Of a DNA stretch of 64,000 nucleotides, positions 63,755-64,000 are shown piece after piece (position 1 is the first letter of the stretch; every line of letters starts with the position of its first letter). Under the pieces are notes generated by a model. That model did no database searches. It had not been told where the DNA came from and saw only the letters and a program-made list of their open reading frames with translations. Origin of the DNA: Escherichia coli (GTDB taxonomy: Bacteria; Pseudomonadota; Gammaproteobacteria; Enterobacterales; Enterobacteriaceae); NCBI RefSeq assembly GCF_003334255.1, contig NZ_QOWU01000006.1; one strand, 5' to 3'. The position numbers and the translations under genes are program-made.

Positions 63755-64000
63755 CGCGCTTCGCTTGTCTGCTGCTTCGCCGGGGCATAAAAAATTTATG
63801 CCCCGACTCTCCAGCTCCTGACGTCCGTTTCCCTCCCGATCTCCGACCTCGCCAGACGCATTCTGACGGCCTGTTTCCCTGACCATGTTTTGATGTGGTT
63901 TTTTAAAACAGGCTTTACTGCTGGCGTATCACGCGCAATACGACCCCAAATAAAGCAACCTGCCTTCCACCCCTCAATTCGGGCGCCCTTCCCTCGTCGC

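Follow-up and report, generated by a model that had tools for sequence, protein, structure and literature searches.

The closing stretch of the DNA studied here, 64,000 nt from Escherichia coli (hereafter the window), raises two connected questions: where a P2-like prophage would be cut for packaging, and what the non-coding DNA between its portal gene and that cut is for. The preliminary description of this locus had seen in the interval after gene Q a possible terminator hairpin and, on the minus strand, a heptamer (GGCGAGG) read as the start of a P2-type cohesive end. Comparison with P2, 186 and a large set of P88-like relatives leads to a different predicted cos position and to a graded reading of the DNA in between.

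A P2-like (P88/Xuanwuvirus-related) E. coli prophage is cut off by the end of the window; in it, the terminase gene P and the portal gene Q are followed by non-coding DNA. The Q protein shares 45% of its amino acids with P2 Q (E 1e-113) and 70% with the P88 portal, and the top DNA matches of the window are P88-like Peduoviridae (Xuanwuvirus and relatives) from E. coli and Citrobacter. A 99.9% identical copy is held by E. coli DETEC-S792 (locus L001), and the DNA past the window end was read from this twin. There the gene at 10273-12006, counterpart of the ORF that ends at 62705 in the ORF list of the window, is annotated as 'terminase large subunit domain-containing protein'; P and Q are followed by a 450-nt gap, a hypothetical gene, SSB and a replication endonuclease, with an integrase 11 kb on. 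This order of P and Q and then an early region means that the window stops within the Q-to-A interval of an integrated P2-like prophage, the same interval that cos occupies in P2. The features of the region are collected in Table 1.

Table 1. Features around the end of the window (window coordinates) and offsets, in nt from the anchored 19-mer, of the RTGCA repeats in cos regions of P2, 186, P88 and the twin locus.
Feature	Position	Strand	Remarks
Terminase large subunit gene (P2 gpP homologue), first of the P-Q late operon	60972..62705	+	From the annotation of twin L001 10273-12006
Portal gene Q (P2 gpQ homologue), last of the P-Q operon	62711..63754	+	347-aa ORF; phage portal protein in L001
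e66, ultra-conserved non-coding block	63755..63820	+	Begins right after the Q stop codon
Hairpin, 11-bp perfect inverted repeat with 3-nt loop	63781-63791/63795-63805	+	dG -17.6 kcal/mol
Right edge of e66, mosaic junction; cargo inserted there in relatives	63817-63820		Conservation ends ...CCAGCTC(CTG)
GGCGAGG heptamer	63847..63853	-	Chance match, no functional part
Q-side flank of cos	63852..63982	.	Kept in all phages with this cos type; C-rich on the + strand
Predicted cosN, 18 of 19 nt in the window	63983..64000	-	5'-GGCGACGAGGGAAGGGCGC-3' from 64001 down to 63983
RTGCA offsets, P2	24, 96, 106, 118
RTGCA offsets, 186	24, 96, 106, 119
RTGCA offsets, P88	26, 98, 108, 118
RTGCA offsets, window twin L001	26, 98, [108 degenerate], 118

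The heptamer is present where it had been reported, but its occurrence does not exceed chance frequency: the window holds 13 copies of GGCGAGG against 9.1 +/- 3.1 expected, and 13 was reached in 12 of 100 shuffles, so that the motif carries no information by itself. What speaks for a cohesive end starting at 63853 and running down the minus strand, with cos about 95 nt after Q, is the match of all seven bases to the first bases of P2 cos in the right orientation, at a distance from Q of the right order (93 nt vs ~168 nt in P2). The likeness stops at the heptamer, however. The alignment to P2 cos ends after these 7 nt, only 3 of the next 12 bases agree with the P2 cohesive end, and the 19-mer that begins with GGCGAGG (63835-63853) is identical to the P2 cohesive end at 10 and to that of 186 at 9 of 19 positions. 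A P2-type flank is missing as well, as neither a T-run with RTGCA nor an RTGCA triplet is found at the P2 offsets from 63853. Most of the heptamer lies in a segment (63821-63851) that is lacking from phage loci with the downstream cos region (L135, L136, L138 and L143), and of 29 E. coli genomes that have this cos region, 16 are without the heptamer segment, their match running from window position 63852 on (L001 13154). A cos at GGCGAGG is therefore extremely improbable, and the heptamer is a chance match without a role. The wider suggestion that the region is cos-proximal holds, in that it contains another cos candidate.

When 63755-64000 and the DNA downstream are compared with P2 cos, the candidate that falls in register is 63983-64001. 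The cos of P2, 186 and P4 has 19-nt 5' cohesive ends, GGCGAGGCGGGGAAAGCAC (Ziermann and Calendar, 1990, as cited in PMC3931495 and PMC9122126). On the plus strand the candidate reads GCGCCCTTCCCTCGTCGCC, its last base being the first base past the window, and it lies 228 nt past Q and before the early/replication region as ordered in the twin. It agrees with the P2 sequence at 13 of 19 positions and with that of 186 at 11 of 19, values to be read against chance sites in coding DNA that score 14-15/19. Ungapped scans with the P2 and 186 19-mers and 50-mers covered the window plus its extension, and the P2 19-mer scored higher than at the candidate at two coding-region sites of the window, 12599 (15/19) and 49753 (14/19). 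Because coding sites reach such scores, identity to the P2 19-mer alone is not diagnostic, and the case for cos consequently rests on register and architecture. The sites at 49729-49802 and 12599-12617 lie inside genes, that at 49753 within a 446-aa minus-strand ORF, and are a warning against calling cos from motifs only.

The position of the candidate recurs among relatives. An exact P88-type or window-type 19-mer occurs in 129 IMG/VR loci, 119 of which have a Q homologue just upstream, typically at 207-320 nt. The window-type cohesive-end sequence itself is restricted to 29 of 5426 E. coli genomes. The architecture recurs too. Ungapped anchoring of P2, 186, a Klebsiella element, phiT5282H, P88, phiSM and L001 on the 19-mer brought into line a T-run followed by RTGCA at +24 to +26, and three RTGCA about 10 nt apart at +96 to +119; P2 and 186 have ATGCA as the repeat, the P88-like group GTGCA. 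For the candidate these right-flank motifs were read in the 99.9% identical twin, the flank lying past the window. A nhmmer profile built from P88-like cos regions only had as its top match in the whole circular P2 genome P2 cos itself, in register, with a weak score (6.1 bits, E 0.15). By blastn the window flank matches phiT5282H (E 7e-15) and a Klebsiella element, and the 19-mer of the latter ends CCCCGCCTCGCC, exactly as in P2.

A satellite-like IMG/VR element of 15.3 kb (2711768167_000011, L127) has in common with P88-like phages only about -18 to +125 around the 19-mer. Its shared block, around 3900-4070, carries the P88-type 19-mer and not the window type, and its genes include an integrase, an 897-aa P4-alpha-like primase and a MazF-like gene, with no portal gene within 3.9 kb. 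P4 and P2 likewise have only cos in common (PMC9122126). The same element encodes a diverged homologue of the P2-family major capsid protein (136 bits against a cutoff of 220 bits); a capsid homologue is unusual for P4-like satellites.

On these comparisons the actual cos is most likely the predicted 19-mer on the minus strand at 64001-63983, its register set by homology with P2 and 186, and the earlier placement would most likely be off by ~130 nt. The candidate resembles cos of P2, 186 and P4 in lying in the same place, between Q and the end of the early region, and in a G-rich overhang that starts GGCG; as in P2 and 186, a T-run with RTGCA stands ~25 nt beyond it and three RTGCA at ~+96 to +118. 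It differs from P2 cos in being identical at 13 of 19 positions only, in its GTGCA in place of ATGCA, in termini that are predicted, and in a greater distance from Q (228 nt vs ~168 nt). Packaging would begin with staggered nicks made by terminase at 63983-64001, which would leave 19-nt 5' cohesive ends, and the presumed terminase-binding flank would follow just past the window end as the T-run with GTGCA and then the three GTGCA ~10 nt apart. The literature searched describes no cos specific to P88-like phages and the phage records define none; the predicted cos is neither the start nor the end of any phage record, and IMG/VR contig ends were uninformative about it.

Between Q and this candidate lies a second and quite different object, a block here called e66. 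Across 16 phage records its 63-66 nt are 98.5-100% identical, and it is found in 1140 of 5426 complete E. coli genomes, about a fifth, nearly always at 95% identity or more. Its surroundings diverge: compared with P88 in 66-nt bins, Q has 59-77% identity, with the exception of its first 54 nt (44%), e66 has 100%, and the bin after it shows no relationship. A blastn search with 63755-64000 against 50,697 phage records matched the first 66 nt only, and those in P88-like phages only; P2 was unmatched. Past its right edge, the copies of the block continue in at least five different ways. The TGA of Q is followed by 11 in-frame sense codons (RASLVCCFAGA) up to a TAA inside the hairpin (window 63752-63790). 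This open stretch is probably a coincidence, near-identical because the block itself is.

Within e66 stands the hairpin that the preliminary description had given as ggggcataaa/tttatgcccc at 63782-63804. It is present, with a stem in fact of 11 bp (63781-63805). The whole 64 kb contains just two perfect inverted repeats with separate arms and a length of 10 bp or more, this hairpin being one, and its 76-nt context folds at z = -3.0 relative to shuffles; the hairpin exceeds chance. The stem is unchanged in 86 copies from phage records and IMG/VR contigs, variation affecting only the flanks and the number of A in the loop run, and an invariant stem offers no covariation to assess and so gives no information for or against an RNA structure. 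In the loop, the window (63790-63794) has A6 and L001 (13091-13097) has A7, the sole difference here from the DETEC-S792 twin; A5 variants occur in other copies, and the varying run length is a homopolymer sequencing artefact or slippage.

As an intrinsic terminator the hairpin is incomplete. A stable GC-rich stem-loop stands 27 nt past the Q stop at the end of the operon, and the run of U is absent: the tail after the stem, ACUCUCCAGC, has 2 U in 10 nt and that of the minus strand 0 U, against 6 in P2 tQ. The terminator scan of the window did not flag it. Of the earlier proposal of a possible terminator, then, what stands is a strong hairpin where tQ of P2 and tW of 186 sit, and what falls away is the U-tract and recognition by the scan. 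Like tQ and tW, which are annotated as rho-independent, the hairpin is GC-rich, of similar stability and on the same strand, shortly after the portal stop at the end of the terminase-portal operon. It differs from them in its 2 U in 10 nt, where they have 4-6, in its distance to the portal stop (27 nt vs 5-8 nt) and in showing no sequence similarity to either; unlike them, it also sits in a block that stays near-identical across lineages with 25-40% DNA divergence between their Q genes. A hairpin comes after Q in the Klebsiella, Enterobacter and 569R5 relatives as well.

Between the Q stop and cos (window 63755-64000, L001 13050-13350), the plus strand is rich in C and poor in G, with a GC skew of -0.28 to -0.36. 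A C-rich, G-poor strand could load Rho. The same strand asymmetry between Q and cos is seen in P2 (20-186); it may mark a Rho loading region or be a property of the cos arm. In the proposed mechanism, the hairpin would most likely form at the 3' end of the late P-Q transcript, where it may act as a non-canonical terminator or as a 3' stabiliser. It might terminate the transcript weakly itself; alternatively, Rho might terminate transcription in the C-rich DNA further on, and the hairpin would then shield the mRNA by blocking 3' exonucleases. In relatives it could serve converging minus-strand cargo genes in the same way. The combined account, in which the hairpin lies at the 3' end of the P-Q transcript, GGCGAGG is a chance match and cos lies at 63983-64001, is held to be likely.

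The interval between gpQ and gpA beside cos is known in P2-like phages as a hotspot of anti-phage and other cargo genes; the mechanism put forward is recombination at cohesive ends and then a second homologous exchange (Rousset et al., 2022; PMC9122126). Relatives of the prophage show cargo of this kind on both sides of e66. In STEC2018-607 and 11 similar genomes, ~660 nt with a 167-aa minus-strand gene come right after the block, the stop codon abutting it, and P88 has a small annotated ORF on the minus strand that stops at the right edge of e66. In 569R5 and PV468777, a homologous gene of 174 aa (24% identity, E 1e-10) lies instead between Q and e66, and Q there has its own canonical bidirectional terminator. 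Three other fillers occur in IMG/VR loci. The family of 167-174 aa, represented on the minus strand at L006 3621-4124 and L013 1901-2425 with 24% mutual identity, is absent from the window. In the twin, a 178-aa hypothetical gene (WP_000801013.1, L001 13508-14044, plus strand) lies directly past the cos flank, at the published hotspot position. A PADLOC search with the cargo proteins of the relatives and with this gene after cos matched no defence family.

Two loci are hybrid in type. In an IMG/VR locus (2579778812_000023, L138) and in E. coli S1-CAM-02-A (L145 1680-1830), a window-type left arm with its 19-mer is joined to a P88-type right flank, and in both, which are independent cases, the switch comes at the right-hand edge of the 19-mer. 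The third GTGCA repeat is the endpoint of several other matches. Such junctions are the outcome that recombination mediated by cos ends would be expected to produce. The interval in this phage group resembles the known Q-A hotspot in its variable cargo beside cos, its mosaic junctions and its hybrids that switch type at cos, and differs in that cargo also lies between Q and cos, bounded by e66. The window's own copy has no cargo gene between Q and cos. Comparison of these relatives shows e66 to be the fixed Q-side border of the cos-adjacent cargo/defence hotspot.

Several further readings of e66 can be weighed against a part in ending the P-Q transcript. The block could have no function of its own and be kept identical as a homology arm for the swapping of cargo, by gene conversion or hitch-hiking, with the hairpin incidental. 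This would fit the mosaic junction on its right with at least five continuations, the cargo found on either side of it in different phages, the published hotspot with its proposed second homologous recombination (PMC9122126), and a set of 43 loci that have a Q homologue and the P88-type cos 19-mer without any e66. It would also fit the retention of e66 in 569R5 despite the canonical terminator of its Q, an observation that suits a recombination anchor as well as a terminator. The left boundary of e66, however, falls exactly at the Q stop, which a constrained non-coding element predicts and a random conversion tract does not, and it is unlikely that a perfect 11-bp hairpin would stand where P2 and 186 have their terminators merely by accident. 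A homology arm is plausible and compatible with a role at the transcript end; as a full explanation that leaves e66 functionless it is given a minor though appreciable chance. A further proposal, that e66 is a dedicated sequence-specific element beyond the hairpin terminator, putatively an anchor or docking site for cassette exchange or a site bound by a factor of the phage or the host, is considered rather unlikely; if true, it would explain the near-identity of the block in about one in five complete E. coli genomes amid diverging surroundings.

Extreme conservation in non-coding DNA between the portal gene and cos could also point to an accessory packaging signal comparable to lambda cosQ, in place of a transcript element. 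The distance from e66 to the 19-mer nevertheless varies, from 162 nt in the window to ~243, 267 and 820-828 nt in relatives, the 43 loci without e66 have an identical P88-type 19-mer and an adjacent Q, and L127 has the cos block and not e66, all of which makes such a signal very improbable. Since e66 is missing from the 43 related loci it is dispensable, and as judged from these genomes it is apparently not needed for packaging. That e66 is part of cos itself was rejected on the same points, the variable spacing and the relatives with the same cos without it. A structured regulatory or small RNA, for instance a relative of the gyrA RNA motif on the minus strand, was given equally little credence: e66 is strongly conserved in sequence and 63728-63813 of the minus strand matches RF01740 (23-25 bits, E ~0.001-0.002 in a small search), but the gathering threshold, 45 bits, is roughly twice that score, many pairs of the second helix are non-standard, the invariant stem shows no covariation and no promoter-like site was found near e66. 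Identity with gyrA RNA was rejected, the match being sub-threshold with only the first helix fitting, and an Rfam microRNA match was set aside as noise. The preferred reading of e66 remains that of a block whose hairpin would lie at the 3' end of the P-Q transcript.

To summarize, the findings leave the understanding of P2-like phages unchanged and fit the known anatomy of the P2 family; what stands apart from that anatomy is a hairpin without a U-tract in a conserved block, a diverged cohesive end, GTGCA repeats and cargo on the Q side of cos. Their practical value is small but real, as they provide a corrected cos position for this prophage, a candidate cohesive end and a delimited packaging block for the P88/Xuanwuvirus-related lineage. 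A more general lesson is that agreement with a known cos over 7 nt is worth nothing, while the offset pattern of the flanking repeats identifies the site. The hybrids that break at the 19-mer, together with cargo on either side of e66, offer concrete cases for cohesive-end gene exchange at the P2/P4 defence hotspot.
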